DNA of 48,369 nucleotides from Nitrospirota bacterium (GTDB lineage Bacteria; Nitrospirota; Nitrospiria; Nitrospirales; Nitrospiraceae): assembly GCA_023248295.1 (NCBI GenBank), contig JAHFEU010000003.1, forward strand, positions 1-48,369. Reading direction: 5' to 3'. Shown in pieces: positions 3,777 to 11,048 of this stretch. Made by a program: the position numbers and the translations under genes. The notes beneath the pieces are model-generated. The model saw nothing but the letters and a program-made list of their open reading frames with translations, had not been told where the DNA came from and did not search any database. The number at the start of each line of letters is the position of its first letter. Positions within the stretch are counted from its first letter, which is position 1.

Positions 3777-4004
3777 TCATTCACGGCCCACCCAGTACAT
3801 GGGCCGGCGTTTCAGATTCATCACCGCAAGCACTCGCAGCTTGTCCTGTTTGATGGAATACAGGAGGGCGTAGGGGAATCGGGGAACGAGTCGGCGTCGT
3901 ATCGCCCCGAGGATCAACTGACCCGCCTCAGGATATTCAAGGATGGCTACGGAAGACCTCTCCGGCAGAGCACCTAGAGTCCGGGGTCGTATCCATTTCC
4001 GCAT
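3777..4004 (-). CDS. ParE/RelE-family toxin, apparently N-terminally truncated (possible pseudogene)
   Basis: C-terminal two thirds match the ParE-type pattern (ILEYPEAG...IRRRLVPRFPYALLYSIKQDKLRVLAVMNLKRRPMYW). The longest ORF overlaps the antitoxin gene by 68 nt. The usual ~35-aa N-terminal helix pair is missing. Confidence 0.6.
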   Translation of the reverse strand: MRKWIRPRTLGALPERSSVAILEYPEAGQLILGAIRRRLVPRFPYALLYSIKQDKLRVLAVMNLKRRPMYWVGRE

Positions 4005-4149
4005 CCCGCCGCTGGGCTTCTTCCGCCCAAAGCCGAGCGTTCTCCGCTTCGGAGAGGTTCTCCAGGCTCTCGAGCAGCTTCCCGGCCAAACGAGCCCGCG
4101 CTTTCGGATCGAGTCTCAGCGCTTCAGTCTCGAGTTCCTCAATACTCAT
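3937..4149 (-). CDS. putative addiction-module antitoxin (TIGR02574-like component)
   Basis: MSIEELETEALRLDPKARARLAGKLLESLE...WAEEAQRRDAEMD...GEVF matches the characteristic pattern of this antitoxin family. It lies directly upstream of the ParE-like ORF. Confidence 0.75.
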   Translation of the reverse strand: MSIEELETEALRLDPKARARLAGKLLESLENLSEAENARLWAEEAQRRDAEMDTTPDSRCSAGEVFRSHP

Positions 4150-4208
4150 GGGGGCATTCTACACCAAACTGGATTGCTGAAGCACGGAGAACCTGCGCCT
4201 CGTAGAGC

Positions 4209-4316
4209 GTGGCCAGGCCTTGCAATCACACATCTCGCCTGCTCGTCACTCCTTCTTCCTCCTGCTTCCCTCGGCAGAGGGCGGCCTGGGTGATCCCAAC
4301 TGCGCGCGTCATCACC
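4209..4316. repeat. cassette-boundary repeat, copy B (~108 nt)
   Basis: Near-collinear match to copy A (see copy A). Right end is aactgcgcgcgtcatcacc. Lies between the ParE-like and RelE-like cassettes. Confidence 0.7.
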
Positions 4317-4394
4317 CGTTTGCACTTGAAGGACAATGGGGATCGCGGCTTCGCATGGTCTCCTCGTAGCGGGCAGGAGGGCAGTCAAGAATCA

Positions 4395-4511
4395 GGGCCA
4401 GGTCTTGCAAGGGAAGAGAGGGGTCAGACCCTTTAAATTCCGCACCGGCATGGAGTGCCTGCGCCAGACCGCTGAAGTTCGAAATCTTCGTTCGGGTTGG
4501 ATTGCAAGACC
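4395..4511. repeat. partial repeat left-arm motif plus an inverted copy (ggtcttgcaa / ttgcaagacc)
   Basis: gggccaggtcttgcaa at 4395-4410 repeats the left end of copies A/B. The 10-nt core ggtcttgcaa (4401-4410) recurs inverted at 4502-4511. Confidence 0.4.
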
Positions 4512-4595
4512 AAACACCGCTTCCCGCGCGTGCCCAGTACGCCCGGCGTGTTCGGCGATTCTCTGTCATGACCAAGACACAGACGGTCCCGGTTC

Positions 4596-4892
4596 CTACA
4601 TGTGATGCCAAAGGGCTACAGATCCCGGTAGACCTCCGATCGGTGTTGGACACGGTAGATCTTTAATCATCCGGTCAGAGGGGGAGTGCCAGTACAGGAT
4701 ACGGTAGTCCGAATGTCGAAGTCGGCATAGGCCGGACAGATCGTCAGGCATGTTCTGCAGCCGATGATGGATAATGTGAGGTGCATTCTCTTTGAGCCAC
4801 TTGATCCGACGAAGGATACCTGTCCGGACGTCCGGGGAAAGATGTTCAAGATCAGTTTCGGCGGCGGGCAGGACTACAATTTGATATTCCAA
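4596..4892 (-). CDS. RelE/ParE-family toxin with apparent 3' frameshift (possible pseudogene)
   Basis: N-terminal 80 aa are RelE-like (LSPDVRTGILRRIKWLKENA...LSGLCRLRHSDYRILYW). The canonical C-terminus KIYRVQHRSEVYRDL-stop is encoded in a different frame (stop at 4616-4618), after an A-run at 4662-4664. Confidence 0.75.
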   Translation of the reverse strand: MEYQIVVLPAAETDLEHLSPDVRTGILRRIKWLKENAPHIIHHRLQNMPDDLSGLCRLRHSDYRILYWHSPSDRMIKDLPCPTPIGGLPGSVALWHHM

Positions 4893-5080
4893 CGGCGGGC
4901 AACCTCATCCAACGACTTCCCCCTTCCTGCCAAGTCTTCCCCCTTTCGAATCTGACGCAGGCTCTTGACCAGTTTGGGATTCTGGCTGAGGAGCCAGTCC
5001 TCCAGCTCATCCTTGCTGTCTGCCGTTTCCCAGACTGTTCTTGGGATTTCGATAGTGGCCTTCGCGGTGGACCTTCGCAT
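4874..5080 (-). CDS. putative antitoxin of the RelE-like toxin
   Basis: 68-aa ORF immediately upstream of the toxin gene and overlapping it by 19 nt. DELEDWLLSQNPKLVKSLRQ...GKSLDEV resembles small antitoxins paired with RelE/ParE toxins. Confidence 0.6.
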   Translation of the reverse strand: MRRSTAKATIEIPRTVWETADSKDELEDWLLSQNPKLVKSLRQIRKGEDLAGRGKSLDEVARRWNIKL

Positions 5081-5180
5081 ACGGTCTCCTCCGTCTCTAA
5101 TCTGAGATCATCATACATGAATTCCCTGTGCCCGTCATCCTGTACAGCGCTCAAAGATTGCGGGCGAAGAAGAGAAGCTA

Positions 5181-5273
5181 GGGCCCTGGTCTTGCCATCC
5201 AACATCGAGACACAATCCCTCCCTTCCTCCACGTTGGCTGAGGCATTCCATTCATAACTGCGCGCATCGGCAC
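5181..5273. repeat. cassette-boundary repeat, copy C (diverged, ~93 nt)
   Basis: Keeps both ends of the A/B unit (gggccctggtcttgcca... and ...aactgcgcgcatcggcac) with a diverged centre. Lies between the RelE-like and VapBC cassettes. Confidence 0.5.
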
Positions 5274-5453
5274 TGAGTCCCGTGAAGCGCACCTCGTGAA
5301 GCGTATCTCGTTCTGAAATTCGGACGCTTCACGAACGACGAAGAACGCTGAAGGTTTGCGCGGTGCGCGAGCATAAAGGGCATGCACGCTGCCCTAGCCT
5401 CTTCACCGCTGCGAATACCACGGATAGCCTTAGTGACAGGATAGAAGCGGTCT

Positions 5454-5870
5454 CTATCTATTGCGGAGCAACGCGATAAACCCTTCCTGCTCAAAATGCC
5501 GATCTGTCGTCAGCGCCTCTCTCAGACGGCGCTCACGCATGAGCAGCATCGAACCGCAGTCGGTCAGGCTATATCCCTTATCGGGTCTGGCTTTGTAGAA
5601 GGCGAGACTTCGGCTGAATGTGCGTCGGCTATGAGGAATCACTGTGACCTGGGAATTCTTCAGAATGGTCTCTACCGTTTCGACTGCGGCGGCACGGACA
5701 AGGGGCGCTTTGTCGGCCAAGGCGTTGAGGAACTCGGTGAGGACTGCCTCCGTTGTGAAGAGGCGGCAGTTGCCCAACGCAGAAGACACTTCAACAGCCT
5801 TGACGTGGTATTGATCGAATGAATTGGTCAGGGCGATCCAGTAGGATGTGTCTGCGAAGAGACGTTTCAC
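5454..5870 (-). CDS. vapC: PIN-domain ribonuclease toxin VapC
   Basis: LFADTSYWIAL at the N-terminus plus acidic residues in the expected PIN positions (D7, TTEAVLTEF, SLTDC, TTDRHF). ATGA overlap with the upstream small ORF. Confidence 0.85.
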   Translation of the reverse strand: MKRLFADTSYWIALTNSFDQYHVKAVEVSSALGNCRLFTTEAVLTEFLNALADKAPLVRAAAVETVETILKNSQVTVIPHSRRTFSRSLAFYKARPDKGYSLTDCGSMLLMRERRLREALTTDRHFEQEGFIALLRNR

Positions 5871-6073
5871 GTCTCGCTGCTGCCATAGAGGTAGCGGTCG
5901 TGACGGGCCGCAAGATCCGTGGGCAGTTTGTGGAGGTCAGGCTCAGGAATAGATCGGGCAATGCGCAGCACCTCCTCCCACACCGGGCGAGACTTTCTTA
6001 TCTTGAGACGGCGGCGCCCTTGGCGGCTACGTTTGGAGGATGATCTAGGATGCACAGAAGATCGTGTGCTCAT
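5867..6073 (-). CDS. vapB: putative VapB-type antitoxin
   Basis: 68-aa ORF overlapping vapC by 4 nt. Assigned by position and size; the sequence itself is not diagnostic. Confidence 0.55.
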   Translation of the reverse strand: MSTRSSVHPRSSSKRSRQGRRRLKIRKSRPVWEEVLRIARSIPEPDLHKLPTDLAARHDRYLYGSSET

Positions 6074-6120
6074 GATCGTTGCAATTATAGCGGGAAATTC
6101 CTGCCTTGTCTAAAGGTAGT

Positions 6121-6167
6121 GTTGTTGATCTCCCACTGCGCGCATCCACCGAGCACCGGCCGCCTTG
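6121..6167. repeat. cassette-boundary repeat, copy D (right-arm fragment abutting a left-arm-like start)
   Basis: tgttgatctcccactgcgcgcatccaccgagcacc matches the right end of copy A (tggttgttcctccacttcgcgcatcgaccgatcacc). It is followed directly by ggccgccttgaa, resembling the unit's left end. Lies between vapB and the methyltransferase gene. Confidence 0.5.
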
Positions 6168-6263
6168 AACGGAAAGACCGTCACGCGTGACTGGGAATGC
6201 CGACTAAAGACTTCGGTCTTCATCTCATTACTCGTCACTCGTTACCCGTTACTCGTCACGCTT

Positions 6264-7745
6264 CTAGCGCTGCGAATACCAACGAAACCCTTTGGTCTCC
6301 TGATAGGACGCCCGGGGAGTGCCGCCCGGCTTCTCCAGGAGCAGGACCTTGAAGTCCCACAGCCCGAACCACGCCGGATCGATCAGCTCATGATAATGGC
6401 ATCCCAGCAGCTTCGGTAGCATGTCTCCCAGGACCTTCAGGAGTTCTCCCTCCGTGTAGGCCCGGATGGCGAACGGCTTGCCGATGGCCGCACACACCCG
6501 TTGAATGGCATAGGCCGCCCCGGTACAGAGCAGCCGCGTGTCGGGCCGCAGCCCGAAAAACCTGGGCAACTCCACGTAGCGTTCCTGAAATCCCAGCCAG
6601 CGCGCGGCATGCCGGAGGTGGGTGTATTGGACCTCGTACTCGGTATGCCCGGGCAGCTTGACGGGAGAGGGCCACCCATCTTCGATGCCGAACTCAATCA
6701 GCACGGCGCGGCCGCCCGGCTTCAGCACCCGCCACAACTCCGCCAGAAAGCGCACGGGGCCGAGGTTGAAGATGAACTCCGAAGGCAGGTTGCCCTCCAA
6801 GGGCAATCTGAGGCGACGGATCCAATCTACCGCCTCCTGGTGTAAGGGCGTGGCGCCTCGGTTGGACGTCACTTCTTCCCGGCTCAATTGCACCGGCGTC
6901 ATGTCGGCCAGATTTTCGTTGTCAATGACCAGGTCCACGCTGGCGTCCCGCAAGGGCCACCATTCCGCGTTGGCCTGCATCCCGCCGCTCCTCCATCCCG
7001 CCTCCTGCGCCAGCGCCAATTGCGACTCCAGAAACGGCTTGGCCAAGTCCAGAAAGAGGTAGCGGATGCCTTGCCGTTCGAAGGGCAACAGCTCCTTCGC
7101 CATCTCGCGCGCCACGTAGCCCAACCCGGCCCCCACCTCGACGAGGTACCGTGGCTTGGGAGTCCACCAGCCAAGCCGGCGAAGGTGCTTGGCCAGCAGC
7201 CGCCCATAGGTCGAGCCCTGCAGGGCGTCGCAGGGTTCACGAAACAGATGGGACACCGTGGTTTCGACCGTGTCGAAGTGGCCCTCTCGCTTCGTGATTT
7301 CGCGGACGTGAAAGGCCGAGAGCTCCGCTTCTCCCTCAAACCCGTGCCGGCCCGACCATCCTTCACGGATCTGCTGCAGCAGCAGATCCCATTTGGCTCC
7401 ATGCCGATCCGCCGTCGGTGGCTCCATCCCGAAATAACACAGGGAATACCGGGGCAGCGACCATCGTTCGAGGTGCCATCGGCCGGTTTCCCCGTCGGGT
7501 CCGCAGACCCACTTGCCGAACTTCTGAAGCAGCACGCCCACGCTCGCCTGACCATCAATGGCGGCCAGGAGTTCTGCCCCCACCCGGTTCAGGCGAATGA
7601 GCGGCAACTCATCATCGAGCGGGGTTACCCACCACTCATCGGGCGCGTGCTGATAGACCACCATATCCGGCATCCGCCAAGCCCGGAGCGCGAGCACCTC
7701 GTCGGTCAGTTCGAGCGGCGCCTGTGGGACGGTGGTGAGTTTCAT
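6264..7745 (-). CDS. class I SAM-dependent methyltransferase (493 aa) with a PqqD-like N-terminal segment and MidA/DUF185-like motifs
   Basis: SAM motif I LVEVGAGLGYVAREM. DLVIDNENLADMTPV is reminiscent of the MidA/NDUFAF7 NEffDAlPV motif. The N-terminal LIRLNRVGAELLAAIDGQASVGVLLQKFG is PqqD/RRE-like. ATGA overlap with the upstream gene. Confidence 0.85.
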   Translation of the reverse strand: MKLTTVPQAPLELTDEVLALRAWRMPDMVVYQHAPDEWWVTPLDDELPLIRLNRVGAELLAAIDGQASVGVLLQKFGKWVCGPDGETGRWHLERWSLPRYSLCYFGMEPPTADRHGAKWDLLLQQIREGWSGRHGFEGEAELSAFHVREITKREGHFDTVETTVSHLFREPCDALQGSTYGRLLAKHLRRLGWWTPKPRYLVEVGAGLGYVAREMAKELLPFERQGIRYLFLDLAKPFLESQLALAQEAGWRSGGMQANAEWWPLRDASVDLVIDNENLADMTPVQLSREEVTSNRGATPLHQEAVDWIRRLRLPLEGNLPSEFIFNLGPVRFLAELWRVLKPGGRAVLIEFGIEDGWPSPVKLPGHTEYEVQYTHLRHAARWLGFQERYVELPRFFGLRPDTRLLCTGAAYAIQRVCAAIGKPFAIRAYTEGELLKVLGDMLPKLLGCHYHELIDPAWFGLWDFKVLLLEKPGGTPRASYQETKGFRWYSQR

Positions 7746-8452
7746 GTCGTGGCCCGCTCCGGCCCGAAGATTTCCCGATGCAACCCCAACCAGAATCCAT
7801 GCCAGGCATCGGCCGTCTCCCGTGCCCCGGCCGCCACCTTTTCATAATCGCTCGACGTTCTCGCGGTGTGCTGCACCGCCTCGATCAGCCATGCGCCGTG
7901 ACACTCCTCTTCCTTCAAGTGCAGGGTGAAGAATTCTAAATCATCCTCCTGAAGCCACTCATATTTCTTGAGTCCTGGATACAGGTACTTGAATTCAGCG
8001 GCAGCCGTTTTTTCAACGGCCAGTTCGGCGCCCAGCGCCACCAGATAATCCGATTCGATAAACAGCCGCTGCAGGACCTGCATGTAAGTCTCCACCTCCG
8101 CGATCGGCTGCGTCCGATCCAACTCCGTCTCGCTCAGCCCAAGCGCATTGGCAAACCGGTCAAGCAACCTGATATGAGCGCGCTCGCTCCGGCCGCTTCC
8201 CAGTTCAGAATGCAACGTCTTGACCAATTCAATGCGCATCCCGACTTGATCCACCGGGGTCTTGTCGAGGAGCCCTTCCAGGAGCTTGACGAAATGCTTG
8301 CAGAAGTACCGATACTGCGTCAGGAAGGACTGCAACTGCCCACGCTGCACGTATTGGTCTCTGAACGCCTGAAAAAAGACGTTGGAATTGACCGGATGCT
8401 GTTCCAGCTCGGCAACCAGCGATTCCAGAACGCGATCACGGGTGGGGCACAT
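7742..8452 (-). CDS. heme-oxygenase-like fold 'iron-containing redox enzyme' family protein (putative diiron oxidase)
   Basis: Strings typical of the family (FLTQYRYFCKHF, LHSELGSG..AHIRLLDRFANALGL, GAELAVEKTAA, FFTLHLKEEECHG). Start set at ATG 8452 (MCPTRDRVLESL). The ORF-track start at 8563 is a GTG adding 37 Arg/Pro/Gly-rich residues. No clear SD for either start. Confidence 0.75.
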   Translation of the reverse strand: MCPTRDRVLESLVAELEQHPVNSNVFFQAFRDQYVQRGQLQSFLTQYRYFCKHFVKLLEGLLDKTPVDQVGMRIELVKTLHSELGSGRSERAHIRLLDRFANALGLSETELDRTQPIAEVETYMQVLQRLFIESDYLVALGAELAVEKTAAAEFKYLYPGLKKYEWLQEDDLEFFTLHLKEEECHGAWLIEAVQHTARTSSDYEKVAAGARETADAWHGFWLGLHREIFGPERATT

Positions 8453-8658
8453 GCCGCAAGGGTACACGAGGAGACTGGTCGAGGCAAGACGCCTGGCGGG
8501 GGGTCCCGCCGGGAGACCCTCAGCCGTTCGCCGACCGTTGGGTGCGAGGTGCCCCATCCCCACGGCGCCCGCGATTCCGAACCGGCTTATTGACGTCCCC
8601 TTCGCCGCATGCTACTGAAAGGCCTCTCATACGTCGCATTCTTTAGTGGAGGGCCATC

Positions 8659-9642
8659 ATGCGTTCTTCCTGCCGGGCACTTCCGTTCCTCGTCCTGAGC
8701 CTGTGCGCCGTGAATGTTCCCGCCCACGCCTTCATGATCACGGCGCCGGCCGGGGAGTCCCATCTGCGGTCCGGTCAAGAGGTTATGGCCACCGTAGACC
8801 TGGGGACCGAGATCGGGATGCTGCGGGTTCGGTACTATTGGTATCGTCAGGGCGAGGAACCCCTCGTGCTTCAGCAGGCGGGTCCTGCCCTCGTGGCCAC
8901 GGCCTCCTCAAGCCCACCTTACGGCGGGACCCTCACCGTGCCCATTGACGCCATCGGCAAGATGCGGCTGCTGGCGGTCGGGGAAGTGGCCAGGGGTCGG
9001 TTGGCCGGGCGGGAGGAGTTCGATGAAATCATCGTCCAGGTGGAGCCCACCGCGCCCTTGACGGCCATCGAATTCGAGGCGGAGAAGCCGTGGAGGCTGG
9101 GCACCATGGGGAAAATTCTTGAGGTGCCGGTCGTCGGGCAGTTCGCCGACCAGGTCACTCGGCGGATCGGAGGAGCGTCGGCAGGGAGCACCTATCAATC
9201 GTCAAACGAGCAGGTGATCAAGGTGTATCCCGACGGTCTCCTCCAGGTGGTCGGGAATGGGAAGGCCGCCCTCACCGTCACCAACCAGGGGAAGCAAGGA
9301 GTCCTCGAGGTGGTGGTCCGATCGGACGTGGAGCCCAATCGGCCACCGACCGCCCACGCGGGACCGGACCTGACCGTCAAAGGAGGAACCACGGTCTTGC
9401 TGAACGGGCTGAAGAGTACCGATCCTGATGGAGACCCCTTGAAGTACGAGTGGGCTCAGATCCGAGGGCATAAAGTCTCGCTCTTGGACCTGGACACTGC
9501 CAAGGCCACCTTCGTGGCGCCCAATGTCTCGACCAGGCGTCTCCTGCGGTTCAAGCTCCGAGTCACCGATATGAGAGGGCCCGATACGGTGAAAGGAGCC
9601 GATAGTTTTCCGGCGTTCGTAAACGTGTGGGTGGAGCCCTGA
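8659..9642 (+). CDS. secreted protein with Big_2-type Ig-like and PKD-like domains
   Basis: SD GGAGGG upstream of the ATG. Signal peptide (LVLSLCAVNVPAHA). STYQSSNEQVIKVYPDGLLQVVGNGKAALTVTNQG is Big_2-like. NRPPTAHAGPDLTVKGGTTVLLNGLKSTDPDGDPLKYEW is PKD/REJ-like. Confidence 0.85.
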   Translation: MRSSCRALPFLVLSLCAVNVPAHAFMITAPAGESHLRSGQEVMATVDLGTEIGMLRVRYYWYRQGEEPLVLQQAGPALVATASSSPPYGGTLTVPIDAIGKMRLLAVGEVARGRLAGREEFDEIIVQVEPTAPLTAIEFEAEKPWRLGTMGKILEVPVVGQFADQVTRRIGGASAGSTYQSSNEQVIKVYPDGLLQVVGNGKAALTVTNQGKQGVLEVVVRSDVEPNRPPTAHAGPDLTVKGGTTVLLNGLKSTDPDGDPLKYEWAQIRGHKVSLLDLDTAKATFVAPNVSTRRLLRFKLRVTDMRGPDTVKGADSFPAFVNVWVEP

Positions 9643-10347: not shown

Positions 10348-10664
10348 CGGGTGTCTCCTTTCATCAAACTGGTTAATACGGTGAATGATCTCCTGGGGAG
10401 AGGTCTCCACTACGATACTGCTTTCCACGGCCAATGTTCAATAGGGGGGCCGGTCCGTCTTGACCGGAAGCGCCGCCTGTCCAGGCCCGCGCGAAATTGA
10501 CGGACCGTCTACGATCTTCATGCCAGAATCTGTGCCAATCACTTCAGTTTTCCAAGGCCTTAGGGAGCTTTGCGGAGTCGGGTTGCAAGGAGGAGCCGAT
10601 TCATGCTAGATGGATGCCACGCACCATGTCATCGGGCGCGGATCGCGACAGAGGAGGAGAGACG

Positions 10665-11048
10665 ATGGCCAAGAAGAAGAAACGAAAAACATCTGCAAAA
10701 CGGGCGGGACGAGCCTCCGCTGCACGAAAGCTGACTCGCAAAGGCAAGCGGAAGAAGACGGCAGCGACCCGGCGGGCGGCGCGCAGGAAACCGGCCGCCA
10801 GAAAAACGAAACGGAAAGCACCACGGCCCGCCATGCCGGCGGCCAAGGCTGTGCACGCAGGGCCGCAGAGGGCCGTCCGCGCAGGCGGACTCCCGCGCAC
10901 GCGGGAGGAACTGCCCGAGGACATTCTTCCAGAAGAGATGGAAGAAGACCTGCCGGAGGAGACACCCTTGGAAGACGAGGAGGCCGACTCGGACTTTTTT
11001 GAGAAGGCTGAAGAGACATCGGACGACGACGAGTTCCGCAAACCCTAA
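10665..11048 (+). CDS. charge-segregated low-complexity protein: Lys/Arg/Ala-rich histone-H1-like N-terminus and acidic C-terminus
   Basis: ATG 10665 is preceded by GAGGAGGAGAGACG. Product reads MAKKKKRKTSAKRAGRASAARKL...KTKRKAPRP, then ...EELPEDILPEEMEEDLPEETPLEDEEADSDFFEKAEETSDDDEF. Five overlapping ORFs here reflect biased composition. Confidence 0.65.
   Translation: MAKKKKRKTSAKRAGRASAARKLTRKGKRKKTAATRRAARRKPAARKTKRKAPRPAMPAAKAVHAGPQRAVRAGGLPRTREELPEDILPEEMEEDLPEETPLEDEEADSDFFEKAEETSDDDEFRKP

Follow-up and report, generated by a model that had tools for sequence, protein, structure and literature searches.

A heme-oxygenase-like enzyme gene coupled to the gene of a divergent MidA-like methyltransferase in Nitrospira

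A 48,369-nucleotide stretch of a Nitrospirota genome (GenBank assembly GCA_023248295.1, contig JAHFEU010000003.1, positions 1 to 48,369 of the forward strand), referred to here as the window, carries on its minus strand two overlapping genes that form a translationally coupled two-gene operon. The product of the upstream gene is a heme-oxygenase-like protein (HDO) that stands alone and is predicted to activate O2 at a dimetal, probably diiron, site, and the downstream gene encodes a class I S-adenosylmethionine (SAM) methyltransferase (MT) that reads as distantly related to the MidA/COG1565 family and divergent from it; both assignments derive from sequence comparison. The best explanation of the pair as a whole, held at somewhat less than even odds (a probability of about 0.45), is a coupled operon in which MT acts on a peptide or protein and HDO provides an optional oxidation step. 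The evidence that carries this view is (i) the ATGA overlap and its conserved setting, (ii) an invariant set of ligand-type residues in HDO, (iii) the kinship of MT with MidA, and (iv) the gene contexts of distant MT homologues.

The gene pair

The two genes and their junction are as follows.

7742–8452, minus strand: HDO gene, 236 residues, from ATG at 8452 to the TGA stop at 7744–7742; Pfam PF14518
6264–7745, minus strand: MT gene, 493 residues; SAM methyltransferase with a PqqD-like N-terminal region, a MidA/COG1565-like core, and a C-terminal extension
7742–7745, minus strand: ATGA overlap of the HDO stop and the MT start, read directly from the sequence

Along the coding strand the junction runs ...ACG ACA TGA AAC..., such that the MT start codon (ATG, 7745–7743) and the HDO stop codon (TGA, 7744–7742) have 4 nt in common. 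An earlier reading of the window from its letters (the original prediction) had described this overlapping minus-strand pair and quoted peptide strings from both products; both open reading frames (ORFs), the junction, and all of the strings are present, the latter at the coordinates given with the motifs below. A GTG at 8563 would lengthen the HDO ORF (7742–8563), and the added stretch is without conservation. The ATG at 8452 agrees with the lengths (230–240 residues) and N-termini of most homologues. Neither ORF is due to chance, because each has more than 100 full-length homologues (57–94% identity). All organism-named close homologues of both proteins are from Nitrospira, Nitrospiraceae, or Nitrospirota.

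Conservation and history of the pair

Of the 80 metagenome loci sampled from the HDO side, 64 are evaluable, and in ~51 of these (~80%, a count corrected for two loci with overlapping tblastn ranges) MT lies immediately downstream on the same strand. Lineages down to ~53% HDO identity retain the gene order, the strand, and the close spacing or overlap, while the surrounding genes vary. Pairwise HDO and MT distances correlate across the 39 loci in which both genes are complete (r = 0.87, Mantel 0/999), as would those of any two vertically inherited genes. The original prediction had named a fortuitous adjacency as the finding that would undo it; the frequency of the pairing, its persistence in lineages to 53% identity, and the co-divergence argue otherwise. 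The other ~13 HDO loci come from three or four lineages with HDO located elsewhere, so physical linkage is not obligatory.

The MT-side sample comprises 80 species-representative genome loci (of 421 encoding a relative) and six others, i.e., 86 Nitrospiraceae loci. MT occupies a fixed site in all 86, in the order ScpB–ScpA–pentapeptide protein–(Lon_C)–147-residue protein ... MT ... Ppx-GppA–107-residue protein–RecG. HDO is directly upstream of MT in 12 of 81 evaluable species, and MT stands without HDO in ~85%. The commonest upstream neighbor is a secreted cupredoxin of ~125 residues (79 fetched loci, same strand, median gap of 145 nt; examples are L005:5478–5855 and L002:7467–7850), whose C...H...M motif looks like a type-1 copper site. 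With the cupredoxin also present, the gene order is cupredoxin–HDO–MT. Nitrospira sp. Kam-Ns4a is an example of this order, and N. moscoviensis, N. lenta, and Ca. N. bockiana have cupredoxin–MT only. The original prediction had proposed the pair as a candidate modification module. The pair is not a self-contained, generally conserved one: the methyltransferase is found in every sampled locus, mostly without HDO and most often next to a cupredoxin.

In the MT tree, rooted at its midpoint, species with HDO sit on deep branches to either side of the root, interspersed among species that lack it. The simplest history is that of an ancestral HDO–MT operon, inherited vertically, with repeated loss of HDO and retention of MT. 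The lineage of the window has lost the cupredoxin besides, and no cupredoxin homologue is present anywhere in the 48-kb window. A tblastn cupredoxin match downstream of MT (6069–6191, E = 0.045) was considered as a gene remnant and rejected as a chance match, because its frame is full of stop codons.

The heme-oxygenase-like protein

HDO matches Pfam PF14518 (Haem_oxygenas_2, 'iron-containing redox enzyme') over positions 2–177 of the 177-position profile, with an E-value of 3.4e-27 and 95.8 bits (cut-off of 28.9). Weaker Pfam matches are to DUF3865 and TENA_THI-4 (PF03070, 38.5 bits). The HDO family is recognized by its metal ligands, three histidines and three (or four) carboxylates borne by the core helices. 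Across 22 aligned homologues (55–89% identity), the residues E83, H93, E143, E147, H178, E182, and H185 are invariant, and they cluster in three segments.

8174–8206, minus strand: ligand pair E83...H93 (ELGSGRSERAH), first core helix region; aligns to a Glu/His of BesC and 4-aminobenzoate synthase
8012–8026, minus strand: carboxylates E143 and E147 (ELAVE); E147 falls on the conserved Glu in BesC (aDEt) and in 9pj4 (fEsq)
7898–7921, minus strand: H178-x3-E182-x2-H185 (HLKEEECH); lines up with the HxxxD/ExxH motifs in 9pj4 and BesC

In HMMER alignments, six of the seven invariant ligand-type residues fall on conserved His/Glu/Asp positions of BesC and 4-aminobenzoate synthase, which we take to be the metal ligands of those enzymes. 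The seventh, E143, is an extra carboxylate that precedes E147 by one helical turn and is without counterpart in the solved HDOs. A profile of the HDO clade searched against the PDB retrieves 9pj4 (5e-15), BesC (7twa, 2.7e-12), and the CADD entries 1rcw and 8va9 (~3e-8), with PqqC-like entries being weaker. The 236-residue protein thus proves, as had been proposed, to be an HDO-type 'iron-containing redox enzyme', which its sequence places in the CADD/BesC part of the superfamily. Membership in a metal-free TenA-like clade devoid of ligands, the outcome singled out as damaging to that proposal, fails because no ligand is missing from the set and the PDB entries matched best are metal-dependent HDOs; the TENA_THI-4 score is likewise far below that of PF14518.

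HDO is orthologous to no characterized enzyme. It stays below the curated cut-offs of both the CADD model (NCBIfam TIGR04305, 53.6 bits versus 200) and the BesC equivalog model (NCBIfam NF042919, 44.5 bits versus 500). The position of the sacrificial tyrosine of CADD, first-helix Tyr27 of the Chlamydia protein, is an invariant Phe27 in the Nitrospira clade, with 'pFYiaW' of 9pj4 aligning to 'vFFqaF'. A CADD-type 4-aminobenzoate synthase was considered as the identity of HDO and ruled out on the basis of the family score and the Tyr-to-Phe change.

The methyltransferase

Direct scans of MT against Pfam and NCBIfam match generic class I methyltransferase models only (Methyltransf_11/25, residues 202–283 and ~333–353), with no PqqD match. 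Conservation was mapped over a wide family of 48 sequences that includes homologues of 25–40% identity, and the main elements of the protein are the following.

7509–7673, minus strand: residues 25–79, candidate PqqD/RRE-like peptide-binding region, containing LIRLNRVGAELLAAIDGQASVGVLLQKFG; weak profile matches
7236–7310, minus strand: family signature H146...HFDxxETTxSH, residues 146–170; F157, E161, and T163 invariant, H146 and H166 at least 90% conserved
7116–7148, minus strand: SAM-binding motif I, YLVEVGAGLGY (G205, G207, G209); invariant in the wide family, start of the Methyltransf_11/25 alignments
6891–6935, minus strand: DLVIDNENLADMTPV, i.e., N276-E277-x3-D281-x2-P284-V285, a MidA/COG1565-type motif; N276, E277, and D281 invariant in the wide family
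6633–6719, minus strand: post-motif segment PGGRAVLIEFG...VKLPGHTEYE; G345, E351, H367, and E369 invariant in the 48 sequences

The residues invariant across the family are F157, E161, T163, G205, G207, G209, Q242, N276, E277, D281, L341, G345, E351, H367, and E369. SAM motif I and the class I Pfam matches identify MT as a class I SAM methyltransferase. Full-length orthologues with at least 65% identity occur throughout the Nitrospiraceae. When 1.84 billion representative proteins were searched exhaustively with HMMER, 459 clusters matched at E up to 0.001; the matches outside Nitrospira have 25–40% identity, cover residues ~135–475, and vary in their N-termini.

Kinship with MidA emerges through these distant homologues and through profiles. 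PF02636 (MidA/NDUFAF7) is matched by 42 of 47 distant homologues (best E-value of 5.4e-15), and the MT family profile aligns to the COG1565 structure 4F3N over 174 positions (E = 1.6e-8). This alignment pairs 'visNEvIADlsvv' with 'vvgNEvLDAMPVRLV' of 4F3N and 'itEYG' with 'fiDYG', which confirms the comparison, made in the original prediction, of the NENxxDxxPV string with the NEffDAlPV motif of MidA. The part of that proposal that finds no direct Pfam support is the family assignment itself: MT has no match to PF02636 (Methyltransf_28) at E up to 1, and none is on record for its Nitrospira orthologues. An AlphaFold2 (AF2) model of MT (predicted local distance difference test score, pLDDT, of 73.6; predicted TM-score, pTM, of 0.73) was searched against the PDB with Foldseek. 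MidA (5ZTZ) and the COG1565 structures 4F3N and 4G67 rank 2, 4, and 11 and give the longest alignments (412–424 columns), at ~16% identity and low TM-scores of 0.35–0.46, and many generic class I methyltransferases have similar E-values. MT is best read as an outlying relative of MidA/COG1565 and not as a regular member.

Database labels of MT as 'UbiE' have a basis of ~20 residues. An identity as an MpqE/UbiE-type quinone methyltransferase was rejected, with scores of 10–17 bits against cut-offs of 158–335 over the same short span.

The N-terminus of MT weakly resembles a PqqD-type peptide-recognition element. PqqD and RRE domains have a winged-helix fold of three β-strands and three helices, the third of which forms the β3/α3 peptide groove. 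An hhalign comparison of 15 Nitrospira MT N-termini with four discrete PqqD proteins aligns residues 25–75 in register (E = 0.0025, with a probability of only 12%); the alignment shows the pattern LN-x-G-x4-h-x3-DG and covers only the β-strands and the first two helices. PqqD is also the top Pfam family for the MT N-termini, with sub-threshold matches in 5 of 15 orthologues (best of 0.006). The N-terminus of the window MT gives no match to PqqD (PF05402) at E up to 10, and 5 of the 47 distant homologues match PqqD (best E = 7e-6). In the MT model, strands span residues 28–34, 37–42, and 50–53 and helices span 54–62 and 69–79. The PqqD-like N-terminus of the original prediction thus persists as a weak resemblance in profiles, while the structure search contributed nothing to it.

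Two further observations concern parts of MT outside these motifs. Residues 81–103 and 86–163 (7437–7505 and 7257–7490), which lead from the PqqD-like region to the catalytic domain, have a pLDDT below 50 and include the invariant residues C81, G85, G88, W90, W95, C103, Y104, W119, D120, R127, E128, and W130. The C-terminal extension contains invariant C407, C418, H450, and H452. Such residues could form a metal site or a partner-binding site. Separately, a 412-residue MT relative with 55% identity (P0242, L177:4217–5455) is without the N-terminal domain; its contig also has the pentapeptide-repeat gene typical of the Nitrospira MT neighborhood, and it may come from a Nitrospirales lineage that has diverged, or its gene call may be truncated.

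Gene contexts of distant methyltransferase homologues

Four MT homologues from outside Nitrospira have a readable gene context. In three of them (Omnitrophota and metagenome contigs), the homologue lies beside discrete PqqD and radical SAM genes; two of these three contexts add ScmC-like, ABC transporter, and NTP_transf_5 genes, and an HD-GYP-type gene is close by in each of the three. Among NCBIfam models, the cassette proteins best match SynChlorMet ScmE, ScmC, and ScmD, all below cut-offs. In one Omnitrophota cassette (L090), an 841-residue natural fusion (P0259, 6001–8526) joins a radical SAM/SPASM maturase to a MidA-like methyltransferase that is a homologue of the window MT, and the cassette also holds another radical SAM/SPASM gene, two PqqD genes, and ScmC-like, ABC transporter, NTP_transf_5, and signal peptidase I genes. 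Single distant homologues are fused to radical SAM/SPASM, HD, or GNAT domains. A member of a large class of ~600-residue homologues overlaps a patatin gene, with M16 peptidase and radical SAM genes nearby. These contexts lend circumstantial support to peptide-directed chemistry in the MT family.

HD-GYP-type (HD_5) genes flank distant MT homologues (L090, L092, L093, and L094) and one Nitrospira HDO–MT operon (L004:1–5123), and a membrane GGDEF-like gene follows HDO in a lineage in which HDO stands apart from MT (L118–L138, e.g., L130:4898–6133). The proximity of such cyclic di-GMP signaling genes could be chance if they are common in these genomes. An association of HD-GYP with Nitrospira MT was discarded, as it was seen at the L004 locus and did not extend to other Nitrospira loci.

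Proposed function and alternatives

In the preferred reading, MT would methylate a peptide or protein encoded elsewhere. The N-terminal domain might hold the substrate, and a basic side chain might be the target, as in MidA, which we take to be a protein arginine methyltransferase (this is also the depositors' name of 5ZTZ). The reaction would be useful alone. Where HDO is retained, it would oxidize the same substrate, or the methylated product, in an optional step that depends on O2. The operon is not a self-contained biosynthetic cluster. An order in which methylation precedes oxidation fits the asymmetric loss, without being proven by it, because HDO rarely persists apart from MT and MT commonly persists without HDO. 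The weak PqqD signals and the three of four distant homologues in peptide-maturation cassettes count in favor of a peptide or protein substrate.

A more specific version, in which HDO itself acts on a residue of a ribosomal peptide or protein that MT has recognized and methylated, for example by oxidizing methylated Arg or Lys, is a long shot. We know of no HDO enzyme in peptide or protein post-translational modification, so that HDO would be the first. If this version is true, most Nitrospira keep a methyl mark only and some lineages add an O2-dependent second mark.

Several results weigh against a joint action of the two enzymes on a peptide or protein. At the pair itself, there is no conserved small ORF adjoining HDO–MT, and transporter, protease, and additional tailoring genes are absent from the Nitrospira loci. 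A small-ORF search of the cupredoxin-to-MT/HDO gaps of the 79 loci gave sporadic, non-conserved ORFs only and no precursor-like one, and no radical SAM/SPASM maturase, discrete PqqD, transporter, or precursor peptide was found in the window or the 86 Nitrospiraceae loci. The original prediction had already remarked that no precursor ORF, transporter, or tailoring gene lies beside the pair, and the wider sample agrees. In MT, the PqqD resemblance is below threshold; the third helix is not evident in the model of MT or in that of the isolated domain, both of which show three β-strands followed by two helices; and Foldseek with a poor AF2 model of the isolated domain (pLDDT of 59) returned no PqqD or RRE match. 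To these are added the missing PF02636 match and low TM-scores of MT, the large distant-homologue class next to patatin, which is a context unrelated to peptides that are made on ribosomes and modified after translation (RiPPs), the lineages with HDO located elsewhere, and the fact that r = 0.87 would also arise from vertical inheritance.

One alternative is that the genes are functionally unrelated neighbors that have a promoter in common at an ancestral position, MT being a housekeeping MidA-like protein methyltransferase and HDO having its own job, such as CADD-like cofactor or metabolite synthesis. This is rather unlikely. It is favored by the majority of species, in which MT stands without HDO, by the three or four lineages in which HDO has no adjacent MT, and by the self-sufficient 4-aminobenzoate synthases among the closest solved relatives of HDO. 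The conserved order, strand, and tight spacing of the pair, with MT downstream in ~80% of HDO loci, argue against unrelated roles, and a CADD-like job is opposed by the invariant Phe27 and the low CADD score.

A pathway of two steps on a small molecule, resembling that of SznE/SznF, is rather improbable. MT would here N-methylate a free amino acid or amine, HDO would N-oxygenate or cleave the product to give a diffusible metabolite, and the PqqD-like region would be vestigial or otherwise employed. The solved HDOs that match here act on free amino acids or their own residues (BesC and CADD-type enzymes), and most of the class I methyltransferases that match MT structurally act on small molecules (MitM, RebM, and TleD). 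The weak PqqD signal and the missing precursor peptide point the same way. On the other hand, the long, motif-spanning matches of MT are only to MidA/COG1565, its distant homologues lie in peptide-maturation cassettes, and HDO, with 236 residues and a single Pfam domain, is without the additional domains of SznF. A fixed two-step route is also at odds with the losses, because the first enzyme is kept in every sampled locus and the second is lost in ~85% of species.

A metal-free TenA/thiaminase-II or PqqC-like identity of the 236-residue protein is essentially excluded: the secondary TENA_THI-4 match and homologue records named 'TenA family transcriptional regulator' or 'PqqC' are outweighed by the far higher PF14518 score, the invariance of six canonical His/carboxylate positions and one extra Glu, the metal-dependent HDOs as best PDB matches, and the absence of pqq genes near HDO among the window ORFs and in the Nitrospira loci.

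Surroundings in the window

The pair is separated from its upstream neighbor by one region defined by the ORF map.

8453–8658, no strand: divergent intergenic region between HDO and the PKD/Ig-domain gene

The operon promoter presumably lies within this region, in which a consensus scan found no sigma-70-like site. The divergent gene (8659–9642) encodes a PKD/Ig-domain protein, in line with the original prediction, which had also placed the pair at a border between accessory and core genes. Downstream of MT are a PIN toxin gene (Pfam PIN, 5454–5870) with a 68-residue upstream partner ORF (5867–6073) and two more short overlapping ORF pairs (4596–4892 with 4874–5080, and 3777–4004 with 3937–4149). 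The short pairs look like putative toxin–antitoxin cassettes, with a Pfam basis for the PIN gene only. This segment, 3777–6073, stands where other Nitrospira have Ppx-GppA, the 107-residue coiled-coil-like gene, and RecG, none of which is present anywhere in the 48-kb window; the border therefore lies where it had been described.

Two other ORFs of the window lack Pfam matches. The plus-strand ORF 10497–11048 (compare L005:4592–5146) encodes a conserved protein whose N-terminal half is rich in Lys, Ala, and Pro and resembles histone H1 and whose C-terminal tail is strongly acidic; it is syntenic in many Nitrospira loci. The plus-strand ORF 668–2506 encodes 612 residues with a lipoprotein-like N-terminus (..ALASC..) and has no Pfam match at E up to 0.001.

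Novelty and significance

While the HDO and MT superfamilies are known, the HDO–MT pairing, the two clades, and the PqqD-like/MidA-like architecture are uncharacterized. A literature search found no paper on an HDO–MT pair, on an HDO in RiPP biosynthesis, or on a PqqD-fused MidA-like methyltransferase. The unusual O2 chemistry known from HDO enzymes is growing fast and includes N-oxygenation, C–C cleavage, and self-sacrificial cofactor synthesis. To our knowledge, all characterized members act on free metabolites or their own residues, and an HDO evolutionarily tied to a MidA-like MT that may have a peptide-binding domain would point to a substrate class that is new.

Nitrospiraceae are globally important nitrite oxidizers. 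MT is present in every sampled Nitrospiraceae locus and is widely mislabeled as 'UbiE', and its target would fill a gap in the core biology of Nitrospira. The repeated loss of HDO amounts to a natural experiment in which sets of genomes with and without HDO can be used for substrate finding. The pair is a moderately interesting genome-mining lead.

Comparison with known systems

SynChlorMet-like PqqD/RRE cassettes (ScmC, ScmD, and ScmE) contain distant homologues of MT with 30–37% identity. The Nitrospira loci differ from these cassettes in having no radical SAM, discrete PqqD, or ABC transporter gene and no precursor-like ORF.

MidA/NDUFAF7 enzymes (COG1565, PF02636; 5ZTZ, 4F3N, 4G67, and 1ZKD) have, like MT, a class I fold and an hhExGxGxG motif, and the NE(f/v)xDAxPV-type motif and the (E/D)YG that follows it align between them. 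MT differs in an extra N-terminal domain of ~110 residues, the conserved HFDxxETTxSH region, and the C-terminal extension, and no association with complex I genes was observed.

SznE and SznF of streptozotocin biosynthesis are an N-methyltransferase and an HDO N-oxygenase, respectively. SznF is a multi-domain protein with an HDO and a cupin domain that completes the N–N bond chemistry, and it is encoded inside a biosynthetic cluster. The original prediction had invoked this system, and what holds of the parallel is the pairing of a methyltransferase with an HDO, which by analogy only suggests that a nitrogen is first methylated and then oxidized. The parallel does not extend to the proteins and their setting: HDO is one 236-residue domain with no biosynthetic cluster genes around the pair, SznF is absent from its sequence matches (HMMER comparison with solved HDOs and clade profile against the PDB), and MT is MidA-like and kept without HDO in most species.

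CADD-type 4-aminobenzoate synthases (9pj4, 8va9, and 1rcw/CT610) and BesC (7twa) resemble HDO most closely, being single-domain PF14518 proteins of ~230–260 residues with the layout E...H / E / HxxxE(D)xxH. HDO is set apart from them by its scores below the curated cut-offs, the Phe at the CADD Tyr position, the extra invariant Glu143, and a clade-specific QYxYFCKHFVKLLEGLL helix, as well as by its operon partner, which is a methyltransferase.

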